A stretch of 33,743 nt of DNA from an uncultured Planctomycetia bacterium (GTDB taxonomy: Bacteria; Omnitrophota; Gorgyraeia; Taenaricolales; CAZCCH01). Position numbers and translations under genes: made by a program. The stretch spans positions 1 through 33,743 of the forward strand of contig CAZCCH010000015.1 of assembly GCA_964497315.1 (NCBI GenBank), written 5' to 3'. Of the stretch, positions 18,364 to 30,952 are shown piece after piece. A model generated the notes under the pieces. That model ran no database searches. It saw nothing but the letters and a program-made list of their open reading frames with translations, and was not told the DNA's origin. Position 1 is the first letter of the stretch, and every line of letters starts with the position of its first letter.

Positions 18364-18762
18364 ATGAATACCCTTCCAGATAAGATAATAGCGTTTTTGA
18401 TAGCACCTGTTGCATCGTTAGGCTTTATGATAATTTTGTTACGCGCTATATTTCAACCCGCATTATCAGATTTTGGTGAGAAAATACTAGATGTTGTTTC
18501 ATTAGTTGCTGTTTTGGCTATAGCTACAGTTGGTTGCTGGTTTATGTTTAGGATGACGGGTAATAGTGCCTTTGTGAAGCTTGTTTTGCCGCTAATAGTC
18601 CTTATAGTTCTTTTTGTTGGGTTAAAAAGTCCTTTACAGAGCCTCTATCATAGAAAATACGGTAAACCCACCTCAGAAAACTTCTGGCTTTGCCGCAAAT
18701 GCGGTGTGAATAACGAGAACGTATATTTAGAATGCCAGCGTTGTCATTCTGCAAAGCCATAA
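18364..18762 (+). CDS. Hypothetical membrane protein with C-terminal zinc ribbon
   Basis: Three TM helices followed by WLCRKCGVNNENVYLECQRCHS (a RanBP2-like CxxC...CxxC). Confidence 0.5.
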   Translation: MNTLPDKIIAFLIAPVASLGFMIILLRAIFQPALSDFGEKILDVVSLVAVLAIATVGCWFMFRMTGNSAFVKLVLPLIVLIVLFVGLKSPLQSLYHRKYGKPTSENFWLCRKCGVNNENVYLECQRCHSAKP

Positions 18763-18900
18763 TACTTTTATTTATAATGAGTTATATAATATAGTTAGCA
18801 AAACAAAAAGTAAGATTTTTACCCTTGCTTTTTGCCAATATTATGGTATACTTATATATTGATATAGTAAAATAAAAGCTAATTTTGGTAATATAGCCGT

Positions 18901-18987
18901 CCTCGACAAAGGTAAACTCGACCAAAAAGAGGTGGGGTTCGCAAAGCTGCGGGTCTAATTTTAAATAGATAGCCGGGCTGTCGAAGG
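18901..18987 (+). ncRNA. Candidate GEMM-I-like cyclic-dinucleotide riboswitch aptamer in the giant-gene leader
   Basis: Hand alignment to the V. cholerae Vc2 aptamer recalled from memory: GACAAAGG / UCGCAAAGCUGCGGGUCUAA / AUAGAUAGCCGGGCUGUCGAAGG versus GGCAAACC / ACGCAAAGCCUCCGGCCUAA / GUAGGUAGCGGGGUUACCGAUGG. A closing helix forms between CCTCGAC (18901-07) and GTCGAAGG (18980-87). Not verified with a covariance model. Confidence 0.5.
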
Positions 18988-19011
18988 AAACTATTTCGGC
19001 AGTCTTTTTTT
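18976..19011 (+). terminator. Intrinsic terminator / expression platform overlapping the 3' arm of the aptamer
   Basis: GGCTGTCGAA (18976-85) pairs with TTCGGCAGTC (18995-19004) around a 9-nt loop, followed by seven T. It lies 23 nt upstream of the giant-ORF ATG. Confidence 0.65.
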
Positions 19012-19033
19012 ATCTAAAAAATAGACTATTATT

Positions 19034-22000
19034 ATGAAACTATCAAACTCTAATATCCACAAAATTATATCAATAGCACTCCTTGTGACGTTTATGATGT
19101 CACTGATAGGGCCGGAGCTTGCCTTAGCTTCTTCTGAAACCCTTAGACCCCATGTTACATCAAGAAAAAAACCTCTTCTAAAAGAGATGATTGCAAGGTT
19201 TACTGAGTTGCAACGTCCTTCAGTAGCATCTAGTGCAGAAGACTTTAGAAAAGATGAAGTGCGCATAGTTAGAGAAATGACTGAAGCTGGACAGCTTTAT
19301 TTTCGCCATGAACCAGAAAAACCAAGTGCAATATACTATATACCATTTTTGCGATATAGAGCAAGGCTTACACGTTGTAGGGGTGTAGCTGATTATACCA
19401 GTGCTGTGTTGAATGAGAAAGATAGAAGGTTTTCTACATTTAAGAGTGAGCGCGATGGTTTTGAGCGTTGGTTTAGAACTTCCCAGGAAGGTTTTCCATC
19501 GGCAGCATTGTACGACATTGATGTTCATCCTCAAGACTTAAATGATGCCATTGCAGCACTCATAGAGCAGAAGACCAAAGAAAAGGACAATACCATTACT
19601 GTCAGGGCCTTCGGTTCTGGTTTACCGGCCTTACTTTTACCTGGAGATCCAGCTACACTTCTAGCAGGAGATGTTGAAATAGAAACTATTTTAAAGTTTA
19701 TATTATCAGGTCTAAGGCATACCAGGAATAAAGCAAAATGGACTGTGGTAGTTTATGTATATGATAAAAAGACAGCTTATTTAGGGCAACTGGAAAAGGT
19801 TCTTTTGGAAAAATTAGAAAACTCACCAATGCCATTTAATATTGTATTAAATCTTAGATATGGTGATATAGCAGATAGAGAGCAATACCCATATATGTTT
19901 GAAGAACAAAGTGACATTAATGTTTGCCGTAATATCACTCAAAGTGGTGAGAGTTTTTCTAAAGGAGATAGTATTTTTCATGGGCAATTAGTTAATAGCC
20001 TGTCACCTCATGGGTTTATTATACATGGTGCGCGTAGAAGGGGAGATAGGATTATATTAGCTTCTGATAGAGATGCTCTTAAGAGGTTAAGTGGCGATTT
20101 TCTGGATAGTAATTCTTCAGAAGATGAAGCTACTAGTAGGTTTTCAGAAATAGGTGCAATAGGTCACTTGGAAGAGGAAAGAAAAACAGAAGATCTTATT
20201 GCTGCATTGACTGCCTTTGATATTCCTTTTATACCCACAGAAAGCAATTGTGAATTTACAAGAATTTCCGCAGGTCATTCAAACCTTACGTATAATATTA
20301 AGCATAATGGCAAAAATAGGCATATTCTTCAACAAATGAGCACAATTTATGATGCAAATGCCCTTAATGCTAATCTGAACTTATTAGAACAGGCTCAAGA
20401 TGCATGGCTTAAGGAAGGCGCAGAAGATGAATACTGGCAGCCCGTTCATTATGTTAATGTCAAGGGCGCTTCTGATAAGCTATATTGTGATACAGCAGGC
20501 AGAATTTGGCGTTTAATGGATTATATTCCAGGAGAGGTTTTTGGAAAATTTAGTGATGTTCCTCAGAGTGATCGTAGAGAGATTGCCCAATCTCTTGGTA
20601 GGGCAATTGTTGTTTTTCGAAGAATGCTAGAATCAGTTCCTTTAGAAAGCTGGGAAAAGGATATGTCAGGTTTTCATGATCCACAATACTTTTATGCTTA
20701 TCTTCATTCTATTTGGCTGGGTCAGGAGGTGCCATTGAATTTTACTGATGGATCATCACATATGGTAGTTAGAGATCCTAGCGTAACAAGTGAATATTCA
20801 GAAAGAATAAATCTCTTAAAGAGAAAGATTGAAGATAGGAGACATATCTTAACTAGCTTAGATGAACTTGGCCAGGTTGTTTCACATGGAGATTTAAAGA
20901 TTGATAACCTATTCTTCCGAAAACACAAAGGCCGCTGGAAGTGCATATCTATTGCTGATTTAGATACGATACAACCTAGAAACGTCCTTACTGATCTTGG
21001 TGATGCACTGCGTTCTGCCGGCAACCCAGCTGGGTCAGAACCGAGAGCAATAGATGATGTAACAATAGATGTTGATGTGGTCACAAATATAATAAATGGA
21101 TACCTAGAAGCCACAGCAGGGTTTTATGATCACACAGAGGCAGAGCGCTTGAGACCACATACTATTGAGGCATTTAAACTTCTTCTGTATGGGCAGTCTA
21201 TGTGGTATTTAGCAGATGCACTTACTAATAGCGCATACTTTAATATAGGTGCAGAGAGAGCGCTATATAAGGCAGAGGTGCAGATGAGGGCATTGGAGCA
21301 GTTGGAAGAGTTAAGTCTAATTAAAGATGGCCCATTTGCTGATTTTGTCAAACCTGATGCCAGTAGGTTTGGGGAAAGGACTGCCGAAGAACGAATTGCT
21401 GCGCTGCGGGAAGATTTGGTGTATTATGAAGCAGCCGCGACAGCGTCTTCAGCACCTGATCAGGATTTTCCAGATGATATTTGTGATGTAGGTACAGGCG
21501 AAGCCCACCTGATGAATGAAGTCCACATTGCAGCTGATTCTGATGAGCGCCCTGAAAGAATAATTAGCGCATACACCGCTGGTCCTTGCCGGGCATATGT
21601 TATTAAAGGTAGAGTAAATGATGAGACAAGATTGTTTCTACGACATAGAGCTGCGGTAGAGGGCATACTTGATGATTTAAGAGAAGATATAGCCGCTTTA
21701 GAGAGAGCTGGCATGCAAGATAGAGAGGTTGTTTTTAAGCTTGATTTAAAGACGCAAGCCGGCCTGGAGGTCGTGAGGCTTGGATGGGTTTCTCCAGAAG
21801 AACTGAGGGAAAAAATTAAGGAAATATGCGGGCCTCGAATCTATACAGAAGAAGGCATTTTCCCACATGAAATTACTGATGTAATTGCAACCCAGGAAGG
21901 AGTAGTTATTTATTGCCCATATAATTCTAATGCCTCCAAGATTATCTTATGGCCAGAAAGCAAGGAAGGTGTATTCATGGATGCTGTATTGCCCAATGCA

Positions 22001-25000
22001 GAAGTCGTAGAGGATGAGGCATTTTCTGCTCAAAGCAGGTTTGGGGAAATGGCTGTTGATGCACTCAAGGGGAACATAAAGAGAGCGGTGTCTGTATTTA
22101 GGGATACGGCTATTGTAAAAAGTCCACAGTTAATAGAGGAAGACAAAAACAGAGTTTGGGTTATTAACAATATCTTTGAAGATAGATTCCTTCTAGATAG
22201 CGTAGTTTTAAAAGATCCAGACCCTAAACATGAAGAATATTTTTATGCTTCAAGAGAAGGGCTTGATATGTATGAGGCCCATTTTGAGAGTGACTATCCT
22301 CGCGTTGAAATAGCCCAAACAGTGATAATCGATAATCCGAAGGAAAATGATCTAGTTGGTACAAAAAGGGCATCACAGTGCCTTCCACTACTATTTGCTA
22401 ATATTCCTGATAACAAGCCCAACATGATAGGTTCTTCTCATATATTCACTTCGACAGACCCGACATTTTCATCCTTGGGTGATAAACTTCTTGACGCTGG
22501 ATATGAAAACCTAATTGTTGTAATTCCTCGTCCGAAAAAGCTTGGACGAACCGTAGCTCCATTCGCATTAAGAACATCTCAGTATGAGGAGGTGATAGCT
22601 AATATGCGAGCTAAAGGAATTACAGTATACGAGGTACCTTATCAAGACGTTTCAATAAGTGCTGCCGCAACAGCAGATGGTTTTGCGATATTCATAGAAA
22701 AATTCGTTGACCCCACAACAAAAAGGACAAAAGACATTGAAGAATTTGTTCTTCTTGAACCTATAAAAACATGGCAAGAATTCTCAAGTAGGTTTGGGGA
22801 GGTTGCTATTATTGAAGGTAATGCTGCACCGGAAGTTCTTCCGGCAACAGAGAATAGGATAGAGCTTGCGTTGAATATGCCTTCTGAAAGGGCTACGCAA
22901 ACAGGAACTGCCTGTATTAGACCCACGAAGGAAAGGGGATTTGCTGATGTATGGAGCCGCAGGGATTTTATGAAAGCCGGTGCTTTTGCTACGACTGTAG
23001 CAACTGTTTTTGGCAGTTTACCGAAGACCGGAGTTGCTGCTACGCCAGATGCTATTAAAGTCAAGGCAAAGGAGCTTTGTACACAATATTTAAAAGATGT
23101 TTGCGATGAGAAGATAACACTTGGACTAGATAATAGTTTAGGAACCTGGCGTGAAGTTCTCAAGGACAGGGAAGAATACGCCGACTTACTCAAGCCCGAT
23201 AATAATTATGCATTGCTTACTGCGTTTGTTTTTGACACGTTGTTTCCTGCGCTAGAGGAAGCTGCAAGCCGAACACGTGTCAGTGCCCATAACGCATCTA
23301 TAAATATAGAATTAGCCTTAATGAATCTCTTGGATAAAAAAGATGAAAAGGTCGAGGCATTTTTACGTCATACCTTAGCCAGGACCACTGACTCCTTGGT
23401 TAGAACAAGACGAATCCAGAATAAGGTAGAACGCGATAGACGAATTGGTATTGCACTGCAAAGACTGGAGAGCGCCTCTGCTTACATAGGGCCAGAGATT
23501 TCAGATAAGCTGGTTAGTATAGTCAAATTACACGATAGTTTAACGCAGCTTGGTCTGGAGCAAAAGGAAGAGATAGAAAGAGTATCCATGGAGATCAATA
23601 GTTTGATAATAGACCTAAATAAAATTCTAATTCCGCTTGGCTTATACTGCAGGGTTTCAATGAATGTAAGTCTGGGTGATGACAAAGAGCATATCTACAT
23701 CAAGTCGTTTAAAATAGAAAAAACCCGTTTATATAAAGCAACTGACGGCAAAGTTGTTAAGGTCTATATTGTAAAAGGGATAGATAACATAGCTATAACA
23801 AATGTCTTTGGTTTTCGCAGACTGGAAACAGACTATGCTGTAGTAATTTTAGATAATATAGAATCCAAAGCGAGAGACATAGAGGAAGTCCTAAAACATG
23901 GAAAATCTGATGCCCATAAGGATATAGAGAGCAGGCTGACTGCAATTGGGAAAGCAAGATTAGCAGACCTAAGGGTTTTACTTGTTGAGCTGGCAAAAAA
24001 GGAATTTAGTGGTTTGACCAGACAGCAAATAATGAATAAGATTCAAGTTTTAATCGAGACCCACGAGATAAGACATGTATTAGATAGGGGTAACTTTACA
24101 AGGGAAGAGCGCGATAAAAAAGAAGGTTCGGCTTTTATGGCAGAATTGATTCTGGCAGAATTGATTACAGGTACAGCTACATATTATAGTGTATTAAAAT
24201 GGGCTGAACATGTATTCAGAGGAGGAGAGCATGATTATGCCGCAAGGATGGTATTTGAAGGATTGATGAAAAAAGCAAAAGAGAAGGGATATGTAAATGC
24301 ATCCGTAAACCTGAAACATGTTAGCTTTAGAGAGTTGATAAAGACAGTAGAGACATTGCGCAGGCTAAGTAAGGGTGAAATTGCAGGTCTGGCAAGAGAG
24401 TCCTATAAAGAAATATTTGGTTTTGAATTTATAGATGCCTTGCCTGTCATTCAGCCTCCTGGTCGCTTTACCGAGCCAAAAAAGACAGCAACGTGTGAAA
24501 TAGCAATTAGAGGGAGAATGCATATTATACCCTCAGACTTGCTTGCCTATGAGCTATCAAACCTTTATAACGCAGTTAGGGGTAAGATTAATTTTACATT
24601 TAAGAAGGAGCTAGGAGACGATAGAGTTCTTGAAATGACTAATCCCGGGACAATAACTAATATTCTTAGCTTTGGACTGGGGCCTGGGGATATTCTAGAA
24701 GTTAGCGTGGAAGAGGACCTACCACGAGATGTGCAGGAAGAGGCATTGAATTACATTGAGGCTTTGTTTAATAGCTACCATATACTACAAGCAACTCAAT
24801 TGGCGCAGATGCATGGTGCTGAGCAGGCACGGATGGCTTTAGGTGGAACACCCTATGTTGATCTTGCCTCAGCAGAGCAGTATGGATTGGAGATAGTGCG
24901 TTCAGATCTATCTAGCAGTCTTTGGCCTGCATTAAGAAGACTAATAAGCATGTTGAAGCGTGATGTTGAGATTTCTCGTTTTACAGAAAGGGGAGATGAA

Positions 25001-28000
25001 ATACCCACTTCACCAGTCGATCCTGCAAGGTTTAGGGAAGATAGTAGGCTCATAGATGAGCGGGCAAGGGATATGCTGAAGGTGCTGTGTGAAAGCAGGC
25101 GCAGCCAGCCAACCAACACCAAAGCACGAAGGGCATTGGTGCGTTTAGAACACCTCGTGGATTCCAGATGGTCGTATGGTGAACAGTGGAGCGAAGTTAT
25201 CGATACATTGCGCGAAGCCGGACTCATCACCTCAGATACGGCAGGGTGGCTCGGCAGTTTGGATGATGAAGTTGTGCGCAGAACCATGTTCTATGTGACT
25301 GTGCGTTATCTTGACATAATGGAGCATGAAGTTTTATTTCACGGAACCTCACTGCATAACATAGACAGTATCAAGAAACATGGTCTGCACCCTGAGCATG
25401 TACCCCCGGGCAAAGAAGAACTTCAAAGGGTATTTGGCATAGTAGGCAAGGCGCTCGGAGAAGATCGCGCAATGGAGATTACAGAAGGTCAATTAAGTTT
25501 TGAATATGATCTAAGCCTTGCTAATTTTTACTTTGCTATCCTAGGCCCTGAGATGTTGCGAAGAGCGATAGGGGATTTACAAGAAATAAAGAAGCTAGGT
25601 TTTCCTGAAATTGATGAAGCAGATAGAAAATTTATAGAATATTTTCTTGAGCACTGGAATGATGGGTATCTTTCTTCAAACCAGCCATGCCTTCTGGCCG
25701 TACCGTTTAAGACAATCGTACAGTTTATGGATTTAGAGCAAGACGCTTACCAAAGGGATCGGACTAGGTTTCTGAAAAGGCCGCACGAATTTTTTAATGA
25801 TGTTATATTGCTTTACCTGTTTCCTTGGGAAACCTGGGTGGGGGAGGGTACATTGTTACCATTCCGCCTTCCAGCGCTTGATAAAATTGAAACAGCAATG
25901 CACGAACAAATGGCCGTTACCTTCCATGACGTGCATACATATTCCAGACCTAACTATGATCTGGGTGATATTTATGTTGTTACTGGTAAAAGAGATGCCC
26001 TCAATCTAGTACCGCTAAAACAAGTAGAAATAGATGAGCTTGAGAGAACCGCTGTTGTCCTCAGAGAAGTAAATCAAGAATGTCAAGAAAAACAAGGAGA
26101 AGTTTTCAATCGTAGCTTTTCTTCCCAGGAAGCACTTGATTTTTGCGCCGAGCTTCACAGCATTGCCCGGGAAGCCATTGCCAAGTCAAATTATGAGAGA
26201 ACCGATGGGTTATCAGGTGCTCGCTTTTCTGAGCAAGTTGAGTTTGTGGAGGATAAACTGGTCAGGGAACCAATAGAGGATGAAAATCTAACCTTGGACC
26301 AAGTGGAACAAATTGAAAGAGACAGACAGCAGATTGAAGCAGAATTGACTCGGCACTACGGGGATGCCGAGGCGTTTTTTGGAGAAGGACCACGTGATGG
26401 GATAAGAATTATTGCAACCACTGATGAAGAAGGCGAATTGATAGCAACTAGCCCCATTTATTATATAGCCCAAGGGGTAGCAATAAATGAGACCAGGCAA
26501 GAGGTATTGCTGAATTATCTTAATACGACTAGAGCGGGGATAGCAGAAGAAGGTTCGCGATATACGGTTTTTCATGAGATGGGTCACTGGGCTAATGAAA
26601 GTAGAGGTATTTCTAGTATAGTGCGGGAATTGATAGGTCCACAGATGGAGGAGATAGCGGCTTCGCATATTGAGAGGCATCCGGATGAATTGGGATTTTA
26701 CCTTGACTTGTATAATTCAAAGCTTAGAGAAGGTGAGATTCCTGTGGATAGGCTGCAAGAGTTACTGAAAGGCTGTTTAGTCGTCAAAGGCCTTACGCTT
26801 TTCGAGGATTGCTTGGTTGACAGGCAGTTATTAGAGTTAGCTCGCGCAGGAGATCTCGAAGGACTTGACAGAGAATTAATTGGTACAAGGAAAATACTTT
26901 TAGGCGATAAGCTAAAACAGCCAGATCTTTGTTGTCTCGCCATACTTAGATACAGGCTGCTTGAGGAAGTATATTCTCCAGATGATAGGACCAAGGTAGA
27001 TATTTTCCCGGATGACTTCAATCCAGAAAACTTTGGAATAAACGCAGAAATGATGAAGCAGATAGATGATGATGCGCGAGCGATGGCTGTGGCAATCAGG
27101 GGTGCGGAGCGCATGATAGCTAAATACGCGCCAGGAAAAATTGCGCCTCCAGGAGATTTGAGGGATTTAAAAGGCAGGCTGAAGTCATCTGTTGGAGATT
27201 TTATGCGACCATTGAAGAAATATCTTACCATTCCTGCGCTAATTTCTTATTTCAAGCTTAATCATACCCGAGTAGATCCCACGCGTTTCACCGAGGGTAC
27301 GGGTTCACTTAGTGCGGAGGGAAATTTGCCCGGCGATCAAACACTAGGTACTAGTGATTATTCCCCTGCCCGGTTTGTGGAAGGGGATGCCATTGCGCAA
27401 TGGCCTATTTCTATTGACGAGGCATTATTAAGAAGTGGTGAGTCTGCACGAGCTATTGCTGTAGAACCTGACTATGTTCCACCTTATGGAGTTTTAGCTC
27501 CTGGAGCTATTAATATTTCTGATTATCTCGCACTTGGCATGCTTGCTGCTTCAGGGATATCAAGTGAGCCGCAAGGGCAGGATGGGAAATTGAGCCGCAG
27601 GACGTTTCTTAAAGCTGCAGCCGCAGGAGCAGGCGTGGCAATTGGCAGCGCAGTAGTTCACAAGGTTCTAAAAAGCGATGATATAACACCGCGCATTTTA
27701 GATGATGCAGCCGATGAAAGATTAAGAAATGCTGGTAAGGCGATAAGTGCTAAATTCATGCATGTCTATGAAGAATACAAGGACAAAAATCCCGCCGAAA
27801 CAAAGCTGGTACGTGCACTTTTTAGAAAAATAAATGACCACAAGACAGAAAAGGAGATCATGCACCATCCTGAGCTTAAACACAAAAAAGATAACGTAGA
27901 CGTACTAATGGGTATAGGCGAACCTGCCGATGATAATGGTGAATCCCCTATCTATCTTTCATATAGCATACTGGGCCAACCCGATGAGATATTATGGGCA

Positions 28001-29113
28001 AAAATGGTCCACGAAGGATGGCATGCATATAATGAAATCCTCAAGAAGGCCAGTGGTGCAGCGGAGGCTATACGGCATGCACAAGATGAGATGCTTGCTA
28101 ATATAACCGAATGGGTTGAAAATCCCCAAAATCGCGATTCCATTAAAAGATATTTTAGCATTTGGGTAAATGAAGAGGAAATTGCCAATAGCTTGGAAAG
28201 AGCAGTTTTTGTTAGAGAAATAGGCGGTTCAGACAATGAGGCTATCGAAAGATTTGTGCAAAAAGCTATACAGCAAAATCCCAGGGCTCAGGCAGATACG
28301 GGCTCAGGCAGCAAAGAGAGAAAAGAGGCCTATGCGAGACATCTGAGAAGGTATGTAAGAGATCGAATACTGAGATATTATCGAATTCCCTCGTTACATG
28401 GTAGATTGCGATATATACTTAGTAGCTATTATTCACATGTAAAACCTGCTGTGTACATCGGGTTATTTCTAACAGAATTTTATGAAGGACGAGCTGATCA
28501 TCGAACTAGGACAACGAGCCCAGGCAGAAAGTTCTTCATAGGGCCAGATAGAATCGAACTAAATATAAGATCTCATGGAGCTAGTGGGCAGCAAAGGCTT
28601 ATTCTTACGCCTAAAGAGAATTTTTTAGAATGGGCATCGAACTGGGCAAATTCTGAGGAATATAAAAGATTGTTTGTGAAACCAGAAGGCCTTACGAAAA
28701 TGCGCGGTTCCCGCTTTTCCGAAGCCTCCCAAGCCATATTTGGCAAAATTGAGCAACCCACAGGCATAATAATGAAAGCAGATTTTGCTACTAAAATCTT
28801 TCCAGTTTTGCCAGAGTTAGCAGTCCACTTTGGCCAAAAGGTAACAATTGCTGTAGTGGGCCCTTCACAGCTAAAGGAGAGAATAACCAAAGTAAATGCA
28901 GTCTTGCCACATGATGTATCTATTATACTATGCGATACCATTGATGAAGCAGCCAAGGAGTTGTCTGAGAGAGGTATAGGCCTTATCAGATTACTCACCA
29001 GAAAAACAATAAAAGACCTTCCTTTGGTTCGTGAAACCCTCCTTATTACAGAGAAGACCCTACAGCTAATAGATGAGTTGAGATCCCGCAAAGAAATAGC
29101 TGGTGGGGCATAA
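19034..29113 (+). CDS. Giant (3,359-aa) multi-module secreted/membrane protein of unknown function
   Basis: Uninterrupted 10,080-nt ORF. N-terminal Sec-type signal (aa 1-32, ALA|SS). Internal kinase-like, HPr-like and HExxH segments, plus two internal twin-arginine signal-like segments. See findings. Confidence 0.9.
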   Translation: MKLSNSNIHKIISIALLVTFMMSLIGPELALASSETLRPHVTSRKKPLLKEMIARFTELQRPSVASSAEDFRKDEVRIVREMTEAGQLYFRHEPEKPSAIYYIPFLRYRARLTRCRGVADYTSAVLNEKDRRFSTFKSERDGFERWFRTSQEGFPSAALYDIDVHPQDLNDAIAALIEQKTKEKDNTITVRAFGSGLPALLLPGDPATLLAGDVEIETILKFILSGLRHTRNKAKWTVVVYVYDKKTAYLGQLEKVLLEKLENSPMPFNIVLNLRYGDIADREQYPYMFEEQSDINVCRNITQSGESFSKGDSIFHGQLVNSLSPHGFIIHGARRRGDRIILASDRDALKRLSGDFLDSNSSEDEATSRFSEIGAIGHLEEERKTEDLIAALTAFDIPFIPTESNCEFTRISAGHSNLTYNIKHNGKNRHILQQMSTIYDANALNANLNLLEQAQDAWLKEGAEDEYWQPVHYVNVKGASDKLYCDTAGRIWRLMDYIPGEVFGKFSDVPQSDRREIAQSLGRAIVVFRRMLESVPLESWEKDMSGFHDPQYFYAYLHSIWLGQEVPLNFTDGSSHMVVRDPSVTSEYSERINLLKRKIEDRRHILTSLDELGQVVSHGDLKIDNLFFRKHKGRWKCISIADLDTIQPRNVLTDLGDALRSAGNPAGSEPRAIDDVTIDVDVVTNIINGYLEATAGFYDHTEAERLRPHTIEAFKLLLYGQSMWYLADALTNSAYFNIGAERALYKAEVQMRALEQLEELSLIKDGPFADFVKPDASRFGERTAEERIAALREDLVYYEAAATASSAPDQDFPDDICDVGTGEAHLMNEVHIAADSDERPERIISAYTAGPCRAYVIKGRVNDETRLFLRHRAAVEGILDDLREDIAALERAGMQDREVVFKLDLKTQAGLEVVRLGWVSPEELREKIKEICGPRIYTEEGIFPHEITDVIATQEGVVIYCPYNSNASKIILWPESKEGVFMDAVLPNAEVVEDEAFSAQSRFGEMAVDALKGNIKRAVSVFRDTAIVKSPQLIEEDKNRVWVINNIFEDRFLLDSVVLKDPDPKHEEYFYASREGLDMYEAHFESDYPRVEIAQTVIIDNPKENDLVGTKRASQCLPLLFANIPDNKPNMIGSSHIFTSTDPTFSSLGDKLLDAGYENLIVVIPRPKKLGRTVAPFALRTSQYEEVIANMRAKGITVYEVPYQDVSISAAATADGFAIFIEKFVDPTTKRTKDIEEFVLLEPIKTWQEFSSRFGEVAIIEGNAAPEVLPATENRIELALNMPSERATQTGTACIRPTKERGFADVWSRRDFMKAGAFATTVATVFGSLPKTGVAATPDAIKVKAKELCTQYLKDVCDEKITLGLDNSLGTWREVLKDREEYADLLKPDNNYALLTAFVFDTLFPALEEAASRTRVSAHNASINIELALMNLLDKKDEKVEAFLRHTLARTTDSLVRTRRIQNKVERDRRIGIALQRLESASAYIGPEISDKLVSIVKLHDSLTQLGLEQKEEIERVSMEINSLIIDLNKILIPLGLYCRVSMNVSLGDDKEHIYIKSFKIEKTRLYKATDGKVVKVYIVKGIDNIAITNVFGFRRLETDYAVVILDNIESKARDIEEVLKHGKSDAHKDIESRLTAIGKARLADLRVLLVELAKKEFSGLTRQQIMNKIQVLIETHEIRHVLDRGNFTREERDKKEGSAFMAELILAELITGTATYYSVLKWAEHVFRGGEHDYAARMVFEGLMKKAKEKGYVNASVNLKHVSFRELIKTVETLRRLSKGEIAGLARESYKEIFGFEFIDALPVIQPPGRFTEPKKTATCEIAIRGRMHIIPSDLLAYELSNLYNAVRGKINFTFKKELGDDRVLEMTNPGTITNILSFGLGPGDILEVSVEEDLPRDVQEEALNYIEALFNSYHILQATQLAQMHGAEQARMALGGTPYVDLASAEQYGLEIVRSDLSSSLWPALRRLISMLKRDVEISRFTERGDEIPTSPVDPARFREDSRLIDERARDMLKVLCESRRSQPTNTKARRALVRLEHLVDSRWSYGEQWSEVIDTLREAGLITSDTAGWLGSLDDEVVRRTMFYVTVRYLDIMEHEVLFHGTSLHNIDSIKKHGLHPEHVPPGKEELQRVFGIVGKALGEDRAMEITEGQLSFEYDLSLANFYFAILGPEMLRRAIGDLQEIKKLGFPEIDEADRKFIEYFLEHWNDGYLSSNQPCLLAVPFKTIVQFMDLEQDAYQRDRTRFLKRPHEFFNDVILLYLFPWETWVGEGTLLPFRLPALDKIETAMHEQMAVTFHDVHTYSRPNYDLGDIYVVTGKRDALNLVPLKQVEIDELERTAVVLREVNQECQEKQGEVFNRSFSSQEALDFCAELHSIAREAIAKSNYERTDGLSGARFSEQVEFVEDKLVREPIEDENLTLDQVEQIERDRQQIEAELTRHYGDAEAFFGEGPRDGIRIIATTDEEGELIATSPIYYIAQGVAINETRQEVLLNYLNTTRAGIAEEGSRYTVFHEMGHWANESRGISSIVRELIGPQMEEIAASHIERHPDELGFYLDLYNSKLREGEIPVDRLQELLKGCLVVKGLTLFEDCLVDRQLLELARAGDLEGLDRELIGTRKILLGDKLKQPDLCCLAILRYRLLEEVYSPDDRTKVDIFPDDFNPENFGINAEMMKQIDDDARAMAVAIRGAERMIAKYAPGKIAPPGDLRDLKGRLKSSVGDFMRPLKKYLTIPALISYFKLNHTRVDPTRFTEGTGSLSAEGNLPGDQTLGTSDYSPARFVEGDAIAQWPISIDEALLRSGESARAIAVEPDYVPPYGVLAPGAINISDYLALGMLAASGISSEPQGQDGKLSRRTFLKAAAAGAGVAIGSAVVHKVLKSDDITPRILDDAADERLRNAGKAISAKFMHVYEEYKDKNPAETKLVRALFRKINDHKTEKEIMHHPELKHKKDNVDVLMGIGEPADDNGESPIYLSYSILGQPDEILWAKMVHEGWHAYNEILKKASGAAEAIRHAQDEMLANITEWVENPQNRDSIKRYFSIWVNEEEIANSLERAVFVREIGGSDNEAIERFVQKAIQQNPRAQADTGSGSKERKEAYARHLRRYVRDRILRYYRIPSLHGRLRYILSSYYSHVKPAVYIGLFLTEFYEGRADHRTRTTSPGRKFFIGPDRIELNIRSHGASGQQRLILTPKENFLEWASNWANSEEYKRLFVKPEGLTKMRGSRFSEASQAIFGKIEQPTGIIMKADFATKIFPVLPELAVHFGQKVTIAVVGPSQLKERITKVNAVLPHDVSIILCDTIDEAAKELSERGIGLIRLLTRKTIKDLPLVRETLLITEKTLQLIDELRSRKEIAGGA

Positions 29114-29944: not shown

Positions 29945-30952
29945 ATGATAAAAATAGGTTCTCTAACGCTTAAAAGCAGGCTAATTTTAGCCCCTCTCTC
30001 TGGTACATCTGATTTGCCATTTAGAAGGCTTACTAGGGATCATGGCTGTAGATTTGCCTTTTATGAAATGCTAGATTCTTCAGCCCTTGTGCATGCTCAC
30101 AAGCGCACTCTAAAAATGCTTGAAAGTAATTCAAATGACGAACCTATTGGAGCTCAGATTTTAGGTTCAGATCCTGGCCAAATTTTGGATGCATGTCAGG
30201 TAATTTTAGCCAATTCAACCCCCCACTTAATTGATCTAAATTGTGCTTGTCCTGCCAAGAAAATACTACGTAAAAAAGCGGGTGCTTATTTTTTAAGAGA
30301 GCCCAAAAAAGCAGGCAAAATCATCAAAAAATTAGCCTCTCTTCTTCCTATACCTGTCACAGTTAAGGTTAGGCTTGGGCTTGACAAAAACAGTGCCTCA
30401 GAAGGCCTGAAATTGGCTAAGATGGCCCAGGAAAATGGGGCTTCAGCTGTTTTTTTTCATGGGAGAACTGTAGAACAAGGCTATGCTGAAAGAGTTAATT
30501 ATGAGGCTATAAAGGAGACAAAGCAAGCTCTTGAAATACCGGTTTTTGGTAGCGGAGATATCCTAAGTGAAAAACTAGCAAAAGAAATGCTGGATAGGAC
30601 TGGCTGTGATGGCCTGTTGGTAGCCAGGGGAGCCATAGGAAGTCCTTGGATTTTTAGGCAAATTGAAACTTACCTAAGAGACCCAAGTGCCCCTATTTTT
30701 TCACCTTCTTATGAAGAAATTACAGCTATTGCCAGAAAACACCTTGAACTATATATAGACTGGAGGGGTGAAAAAGTAGCCCAAAAATACTACCTCGGCC
30801 ACATTCGAAAAATAGCTATATGGTACTCAAAAGGTCTGCCTTACTCCAAAAGAGCTCGAGAAGCCATATCCAAGGCTAGCAGTTCTAGTGAAGTTATAGA
30901 AGTGTTAGGCAGGTTAAATCGAGATTATGATAAGAGTTGGTTTAAAAAATGA
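29945..30952 (+). CDS. dus: tRNA-dihydrouridine synthase
   Basis: LAPLSGTSDLPFRRL, DLNCACPAKK (catalytic Cys), VTVKVRLG, HGRT and VARGAIGSPWIF motifs of the Dus family. Confidence 0.92.
   Translation: MIKIGSLTLKSRLILAPLSGTSDLPFRRLTRDHGCRFAFYEMLDSSALVHAHKRTLKMLESNSNDEPIGAQILGSDPGQILDACQVILANSTPHLIDLNCACPAKKILRKKAGAYFLREPKKAGKIIKKLASLLPIPVTVKVRLGLDKNSASEGLKLAKMAQENGASAVFFHGRTVEQGYAERVNYEAIKETKQALEIPVFGSGDILSEKLAKEMLDRTGCDGLLVARGAIGSPWIFRQIETYLRDPSAPIFSPSYEEITAIARKHLELYIDWRGEKVAQKYYLGHIRKIAIWYSKGLPYSKRAREAISKASSSSEVIEVLGRLNRDYDKSWFKK

Follow-up and report, generated by a model that had tools for sequence, protein, structure and literature searches.

A predicted c-di-GMP-I ON riboswitch with a rare U at pocket position 92 in the leader of a giant Omnitrophota gene

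What regulates a gene of 3,359 codons in an uncultured bacterium, and which signal, if any, is read by the RNA in front of it? The gene (19034..29113, +) lies in a 33.7-kb window, the whole stretch of DNA that was analysed (the sequence of JGI contig Ga0118720_1001580), and is preceded by an intergenic leader of 271 nt (18763-19033) between the stop codon of a 132-aa gene (18762) and its own ATG at 19034. The original prediction placed in the leader a GEMM-I-like cyclic dinucleotide aptamer with an overlapping terminator, possibly altered in ligand specificity. The host is assigned to the Omnitrophota from sequence; the named best matches of the DusB gene in the window (29945-30952) are all Candidatus Omnitrophota/Omnitrophica, at 66% identity or less. 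The analysis argues for a transcriptional ON switch of the c-di-GMP class I in the ~175-nt RNA leader of this 3,359-codon gene, with c-di-GMP as the likeliest ligand, a reading that is probable and leaves real room for others.

Family membership and anatomy of the aptamer

When the whole window was scanned on both strands against 4227 families (Rfam cmscan), the sole match at the gathering threshold (GA) was to RF01051 (c-di-GMP-I) at 18901-18985 (+), which covers the full model (positions 1-87) at 43.5 bits against a GA of 35, with E = 1.8e-5 for the whole window and E = 3e-9 when the short stretch alone was searched. A score below the gathering threshold had been named beforehand as the outcome that would refute the GEMM-I class call, which came through this test, and the proposed control search with c-di-GMP-II (RF01786) gave no match at the gathering threshold, nor at E <= 10 in 18760-19040. 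RF03167, a short-P3 model, aligns with 18902-18986, P1 columns included, at 41.8 bits, under its own GA of 59. Together with the minimum free energy (MFE) fold, these alignments outline a c-di-GMP-I (GEMM-I) aptamer at 18901..18987 (+), placed 49 nt 5' of the ATG in the 5' leader, on the same strand as the gene and accompanied by an expression platform. The conserved blocks from which the class was first recognised (ACAAAGGUAAAC, CGCAAAGC, GGGUCUAA and UAGCCGGGCUGUCGAAGG) are all present in the leader, as is the helix UCUA/UAGA, in which 18954-57 pairs with 18966-69. The aptamer was recovered identically in 10 contigs of the same species from other metagenomes, with the 271-nt leader, the 87-nt core and the Rfam scores all equal; the leader copies at the upstream-gene locus are all identical and so offer no sequence variation for covariation analysis.

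Vc2 numbering was mapped onto the sequence by combining the cmscan alignments with the base pairs that PMC11705072 lists for Vc2 (G14-C93, C13-G94, U90-A48, G21-C46, C22-G45 and C44-G83). The MFE structure of 18901-18987 alone is the P1/P2/P3 fold, at -27.3 kcal/mol, and the three-helix junction of the family, with P1 as closing helix and two hairpins, is found both in this fold and in the cmscan structure lines. The 5' strand of P1 lies at 18901..18907 (+), where 18901-18905 pair with 18982-18987 (CG, CG, UA, CG, GC), in agreement with the P1 columns of RF03167; Vc2 G14-C93 becomes G18905-C18982 and C13-G94 becomes C18904-G18983. In the fold, two further possible pairs, A18906-U18981 (AU) and C18907-G18980 (CG), could lengthen P1 across the pocket, and a P1 so lengthened would compete with the ligand. 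The P2 (P1b) hairpin, defined by alignments and fold at 18912..18942 (+), carries the equivalents of G21-C46 (G18912-C18942) and C22-G45 (the wobble U18913-G18941), a stem of 18917-23 with 18931-37 that contains one G-G mismatch, and an A-rich loop of 7-9 nt that is not GNRA (AAAAAGA / CAAAAAGAG). Positions 42-44 read UUC (18938-40) against the consensus GAC, with C44 kept as C18940. The P3 (P2) hairpin is of the short form (18945..18979, +), with 12 pairs, an AU-rich tip and bulged A18971 and G18972; four distal P3 pairs of the model are deleted in the RF01051 alignment. The bulged G18972 stands at the aligned column of G83 and is the partner of C18940, which gives the interhelical C44-G83 pair, described as universally conserved (PMC4744006). 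U90 corresponds to U18979 and position 91 to G18980. The weakness of the tetraloop helix, which the original prediction had named as its main reservation, was borne out: the A-rich loop stands where a GNRA loop would be, P3 lacks its distal 4 bp, and the tetraloop and its receptor, a feature of only part of the GEMM-I family, are both absent.

Vc2 G20 recognises one ligand base through its Hoogsteen face (PMC6140456), and Vc2 A47 intercalates between two ligand bases (PMC4744006). Both purines are canonical in the window: the G20 equivalent is G18911 (+), at RF01051 model position 11 in both cmscan alignments with posterior '*', and the A47 equivalent is A18943 (+), in the CGCAAAGC block of both alignments. 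The proposal that G20 is replaced by A18906 is therefore set aside, A18906 being Vc2 position 15, beside P1 G14-C93. The companion proposal, that C92 is replaced by U18981 (+), holds in the alignments and in the Vc2 pair mapping, because the equivalents of G14-C93, C13-G94, U90 and C44-G83 leave that site to it. In Vc2 position 92 forms a Watson-Crick pair with the second guanine of the ligand, and the window thus has U where the family has the C of that pair. The pocket composition is G20/A47/U92. Position 92 is not treated here as family-defining, since the clan models give 57-80 bits to 18 natural U92 RNAs and Vc2 with C92U keeps a reduced response to c-di-GMP.

Set beside Vc2 (Vibrio cholerae, 5' of tfoY, RF01051), the window retains an intact core, namely the three-helix junction, G20, A47, G21-C46, C44-G83 and the AGC...GCU strand of P3, and differs in having U92 in place of C, UUC in place of GAC at 42-44, a short P3 and neither the GAAA tetraloop nor the 11-nt receptor. 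The A at position 20 that marks GEMM-Ib 3'3'-cGAMP riboswitches is absent (G18911). RF03167 (c-di-GMP-I-GGC) and RF03168 (c-di-GMP-I-UAU) belong to the same clan, CL00126, and the short-P3 form of the window aligns with RF03167; the score, however, is below the GA of that family and A stands at position 47, where its consensus has G. The names GGC and UAU would seem to give the bases at positions 20/47/92, in which case the window, with G18911, does not have the U20 of UAU; one natural U92 RNA (L045) passes RF03168. A score of 43.5 bits is low for a family whose other members reach 57-80 bits, and is explained by U92, UUC for GAC at 42-44, the G-G mismatch in P2, the absence of GNRA tetraloop and receptor, and the truncated P3. 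With such a score and such departures from conserved positions, ligand binding could be weak or lost. As judged from its sequence the element is nevertheless genuine, a divergent c-di-GMP-I riboswitch of a known class and an ordinary kind, with one rare pocket change.

Terminator, promoter and switch logic

An intrinsic terminator occupies 18975..19012 (+), with a stem of 18975-18986 and 18994-19005, a loop at 18987-18993 and a U7 tract at 19006-19012. The terminator scan and the fold agree on 12 pairs, 4 of them G-U (the overlap with the aptamer 3' strand had been foreseen, with a shorter stem of 10 bp), and the hairpin has a folding energy of -15.7 kcal/mol (z = -3.5). Its 5' arm (18975-18986) is made of the 3' strand of P3 and the 3' strand of P1, and because this arm is common to both structures the aptamer and terminator folds are mutually exclusive. 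Over 18896-19012 the best aptamer fold is calculated at -35.3 and the best terminator fold at -34.6 kcal/mol; the plain MFE structure is the aptamer, and the centroid is the terminator. The aptamer fold has a further pairing, of a 5' GCCG (18896-99) with the CGGC (18997-19000) of the terminator 3' arm, and the terminator itself contains a U18981-G18999 wobble. Neither fold can coexist with the other and the two are evenly matched, so that a bound ligand should shift the outcome towards read-through, and ON logic, as the original prediction had proposed from the overlap of the terminator with the aptamer 3' strands, is supported by the modelled structure.

We infer the following course of events in vivo. 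Transcription would start from the promoter at ~18825-18852, and the aptamer (18901-18987) would fold into its three-helix junction. Ligand binding would hold P1 and the base of P3 in place, 18975-18986 would be barred from serving as the terminator 5' arm, and polymerase would read through into the gene; with no ligand, the nearly isoenergetic terminator would form and transcription would stop at ~19012. The terminator hairpin leaves the start codon at 19034 uncovered, and there is no Shine-Dalgarno-like sequence before this ATG, something that many of the window's genes lack as well. A platform of the same design, GCUGCCGAA-loop-UUCGGCAGC-U tract, recurs in the nearest aptamers among the GEMM-I RNAs collected, which are short-P3 ON switches from metagenomes (L107, L124, L135) that stand 5' of secreted, signal-peptide proteins. 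These differ from the window in having C92, GNRA loops, GAC or GGC at 42-44, and genes of 156-782 aa. For Vc2 an off-switch that works through RNA stability has been described (10.1101/617340), and the window differs from it in that its platform is an overlapping intrinsic terminator with ON logic.

The promoter itself is best approached through a sister species found on sibling-sample contigs, in which the region 5' of a gene for a 1,126-aa protein (L182:244-3624) aligns with window 18775-18862. A -35-like hexamer, TTGCTT (18825..18830, +), aligns with the TTGACT upstream of this relative, and an extended -10, TGGTATACT (18844..18852, +; TG at 18844-45, hexamer at 18847-52), aligns with the sister TGGTATAAT. 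The segment 18825-18852 is likely, from its sequence, to be the promoter of the riboswitch and giant-gene unit, with transcription probably starting near 18859; its -10 overlaps a scan-predicted TTGCCA-17-TATATT site (18832-18860). The extended -10 originally suggested at 18886..18894 (+) is there as described (TGGTAATAT) and is a possible alternative, yet not the favoured one: the promoter scan gave no site at 18886-18894, this segment is without a counterpart in the sister species, and the promoter at 18825-52, being shared with the sister, is the better candidate.

Just 3' of the 132-aa gene, an 11-bp AU-rich hairpin (18804-18834, CAAAAAGUAAG ... CUUGCUUUUUG) overlaps the -35 in a region conserved in the sister; it could be a terminator of the upstream operon or a promoter-occluding structure. 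In the sister species the promoter consists of TTGACT, a 16-nt spacer and TGGTATAAT, with the ATG following 7 nt on, and in the window TGGTATACT is followed by ~172 extra nt, containing riboswitch and terminator, before the ATG. The likely promoter is thus shared by the two species, and the riboswitch is a lineage-specific addition or loss. The short distance of only ~7 nt between a perfect extended -10 and the sister ATG (L182:200-246), where the window has TTG (18859-61), suggests that the mRNA of the sister 1,126-aa gene is leaderless.

The giant gene and its relatives

The 3359-aa product of the regulated gene begins with a hydrophobic signal-like segment and contains a kinase-like (APH) domain at residues 408-672 (Pfam). 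Its N-terminal 800 aa have no relatives in the genomic contigs or in a word-indexed protein search; an exhaustive HMMER search with residues 1-1200 returned relatives almost only for 385-760, at 35-46% identity, within proteins of 2,330-5,866 aa, several of them labelled Omnitrophota. Two internal twin-arginine-like motifs with hydrophobic stretches (WSRRDFMKAGAFATTVATVFG and SRRTFLKAAAAGAGVAIGSAVV) are encoded at window 22880-22960 and 27580-27660, residues ~1287 and ~2852 (TIGR01409 scores 25.1 bits, above its cut-off of 16.7). Such motifs are odd inside a single open reading frame (ORF) and suggest fused or formerly separate secreted modules. The motif [SAT]RF[SGTVR]E occurs in 11 copies (residues 54, 368, 777, 1001, 1252, 1981, 1998, 2396, 2750, 2779 and 3226) against 0.06 expected from shuffles, with the copies at 368 and 777 flanking the kinase-like domain; it is nearly absent from the homologous giant proteins, among which a single copy is found, in P0009, and could be an inter-module linker, docking or processing motif.

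The sister species sheds light on how such a protein may have been assembled. Its homologue of the 132-aa upstream protein (p132) is 75% identical and stands in the order Fic - AAL decarboxylase - p132 - 173-aa ORF - LAGLIDADG - DUF134, and between p132 and DUF134 there is neither riboswitch nor giant gene (no GEMM-I at E <= 1). The gene for the 1,126-aa protein lies elsewhere, 5' of Fic. The signal peptides of this protein and of the giant protein can be aligned, and over residues 456-909 it shares 60% identity with giant residues 2777-3230 (window 27362-28723). The sharing of a signal peptide and of a 60%-identical module with a protein from a different locus makes the giant gene look, in sequence, like a mosaic of shuffled modules.

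A riboswitch as a general feature of these giant genes was considered and ruled out on the basis of nine related loci that lack one. None of the nine, which carry homologous kinase-like giant genes, gave an Rfam match at the gathering score, with upstream sequence of 200 nt or less in at least three of the nine, and the four with usable upstream sequence gave no GEMM-I when re-scanned at E <= 1. Omnitrophota giant genes have been linked to c-di-GMP in a preprint through PilZ neighbours and internal GGDEF domains. The gene that follows the giant ORF in the window is DUF134, not PilZ. Elsewhere, a PilZ-domain gene (L174:11593-12291) lies directly 3' of a 3,849-aa giant gene with a homologous kinase-like domain, an adjacency that matches the reported association.

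Position 92, the ligand and the alternatives

A search of genomic contigs with the core pattern carrying T at position 92 gave 59 loci, of which ~35 look by eye like genuine GEMM-I RNAs; on viral contigs the matches to the pattern were mostly coding false positives. All 18 of the U92 RNAs tested pass the Rfam clan models (56.8-79.8 bits) and all have the pocket G20/A47/U92; their sources are Rubrobacter, Rokubacteria, Nitrospirae, Alicyclobacillus, Desulfuromonadales, Shewanella mangrovi, Rickettsiales and Omnitrophota. With Y allowed at position 92, a scan of metagenomes yielded a pattern-defined sample of 94 GEMM-I RNAs, 93 with C and 1 with U, none of them related to the giant-gene leader. 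From its single occurrence there and its recurrence in genomes, U92 is thus rare but recurrent. In what is a biased sample, about one quarter of the ~35 genuine-looking matches (of the 59) carry Omnitrophota labels, and U92 RNAs seem over-represented in that phylum. Among the genes 3' of U92 RNAs one encodes a GGDEF cyclase (L030), one a GGDEF-EAL protein (L045) and one an MCP (L044); others encode a PAS histidine kinase (L024) or long secreted proteins (L037, > 1537 aa; L077, > 1531 aa), so that the usual c-di-GMP regulon is represented.

Several arrangements came to light in the course of this survey. One group of U92 RNAs from Omnitrophota- or Planctomycetales-labelled MAGs (L025, L029, L031, L038, L046, L047, L062, L064, L074 and L078) has in common the 3' tail GUCUGGUUGCC together with a P2 loop rich in A; for the six with an extracted downstream ORF (L029, L031, L038, L062, L078 and, less clearly, L025) that ORF is of 70-113 aa, and five of these six small proteins end in ...IVVP. 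On a Rubrobacter contig a c-di-GMP-II riboswitch (L039:687-773, 69.7 bits) lies ~600 nt from a U92 c-di-GMP-I riboswitch, and two leaders (L127 and L146) hold tandem GEMM-I aptamers, two per leader and ~60 nt apart, 5' of a secreted protein.

The pocket of the window has a close parallel in the C92U mutant of Vc2 (PDB 3MUR and 3UD3, as listed in PMC10671752), which has the same G20/A47/U92 composition; that RNA is a laboratory point mutant of a consensus aptamer, whereas the window is natural and more divergent, with a P1 that can be extended over U92. On the V. cholerae chromosome C92U lowers the Vc2 response 30-fold, and a diguanylate cyclase brings part of that response back (bioRxiv 10.1101/617340). 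Within the terminator the partner of U92 is A in two natural RNAs (L043 and L037, from reading of the sequences), and in the window the wobble partner G18999 makes U18981 look like a C-to-U transition tolerated in both modelled folds, not a redesigned pocket. On these comparisons the most likely ligand is c-di-GMP, which would be held by a G-U wobble, probably at reduced affinity.

The altered specificity raised in the original prediction survives in so far as U92 is present and rare (1/94 in the pattern-defined metagenome sample), and it loses ground in that G20 is canonical and G20/A47/U92 RNAs recur across phyla 5' of c-di-GMP-regulon genes; it is the less likely reading. In its general form, the same scaffold would bind another ligand, U92 forming a Watson-Crick pair with adenine while G20 reads guanine, so that 3'3'-cGAMP, in the orientation opposite to that in GEMM-Ib, or some other cyclic dinucleotide would be preferred. 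Pocket changes do re-target this scaffold, since G20A leads to cGAMP binding (PMC6140456) and G20A/C92U binds c-di-AMP (PMC7288161, PMC9049102), and the share of Omnitrophota labels among U92 RNAs could be read in the same direction. The GEMM-Ib riboswitches themselves (Geobacter Gs1761; Kellenberger 2015 and Nelson 2015, by the account in PMC6140456) resemble the window in scaffold and in having a single pocket substitution relative to consensus, but their diagnostic base is A20 with C92 kept. Because G20 is retained in the window, this validated signature is absent, and the GGDEF, EAL and MCP genes behind U92 RNAs in other phyla, the residual c-di-GMP response of C92U Vc2 and the tolerated transition opposite G18999 all weigh against a change of ligand, which is accordingly judged unlikely. 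A bolder version, in which G20/A47/U92 GEMM-I RNAs form a distinct specificity class for a G-A cyclic dinucleotide or another signal, bound in the orientation opposite to GEMM-Ib, and in this organism gate a mosaic giant protein through a riboswitch placed by insertion downstream of a conserved promoter and ahead of the start codon, is doubtful still.

The low score, UUC for GAC, U92, the P2 mismatch and the missing tetraloop and receptor would equally suit an aptamer that has decayed and binds no ligand, leaving the hairpin and U7 as a constitutive, protein- or temperature-modulated attenuator or as a means of keeping a costly gene at a low basal level; P1 can close over the pocket, and in the sister, which has no riboswitch, the same promoter drives a related gene. 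Decay sits poorly, however, with the integrity of all three helices, both junction purines, C44-G83 and the exact terminator overlap, with folds balanced within 1 kcal/mol as in a working switch, and with a sequence identical across 10 contigs from several samples, and it too is considered improbable. That the resemblance arose by chance in an AT-rich intergenic region might be argued from a score only 8.5 bits over the gathering threshold, but the E-values for both the whole window and the short stretch, and a full-length match on the right strand, 5' of a gene and fitted to a platform known from other GEMM-I leaders, speak against it; the RF01051 and RF03167 alignments together with the fold effectively refute this reading, which is hardly credible.

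The preferred reading, a c-di-GMP-I switch, leaves the understanding of the riboswitch class unchanged, and adds a clean c-di-GMP-I ON switch, well supported by computation, to the Omnitrophota, an uncultured phylum noted for its giant genes. Riboswitches are not mentioned in either of the two preprints on these giant genes, where the link to c-di-GMP is made only via neighbouring PilZ genes and internal GGDEF domains. By sequence and model the element would be a transcriptional, ON-type terminator platform before a mosaic giant gene. Its natural C92U pocket provides a test case for the share of position 92 in affinity or selectivity outside Vc2, and the sister species, which keeps promoter and signal peptide with no riboswitch, completes a natural pair, with and without the element, that bears on riboswitch control of a costly gene.
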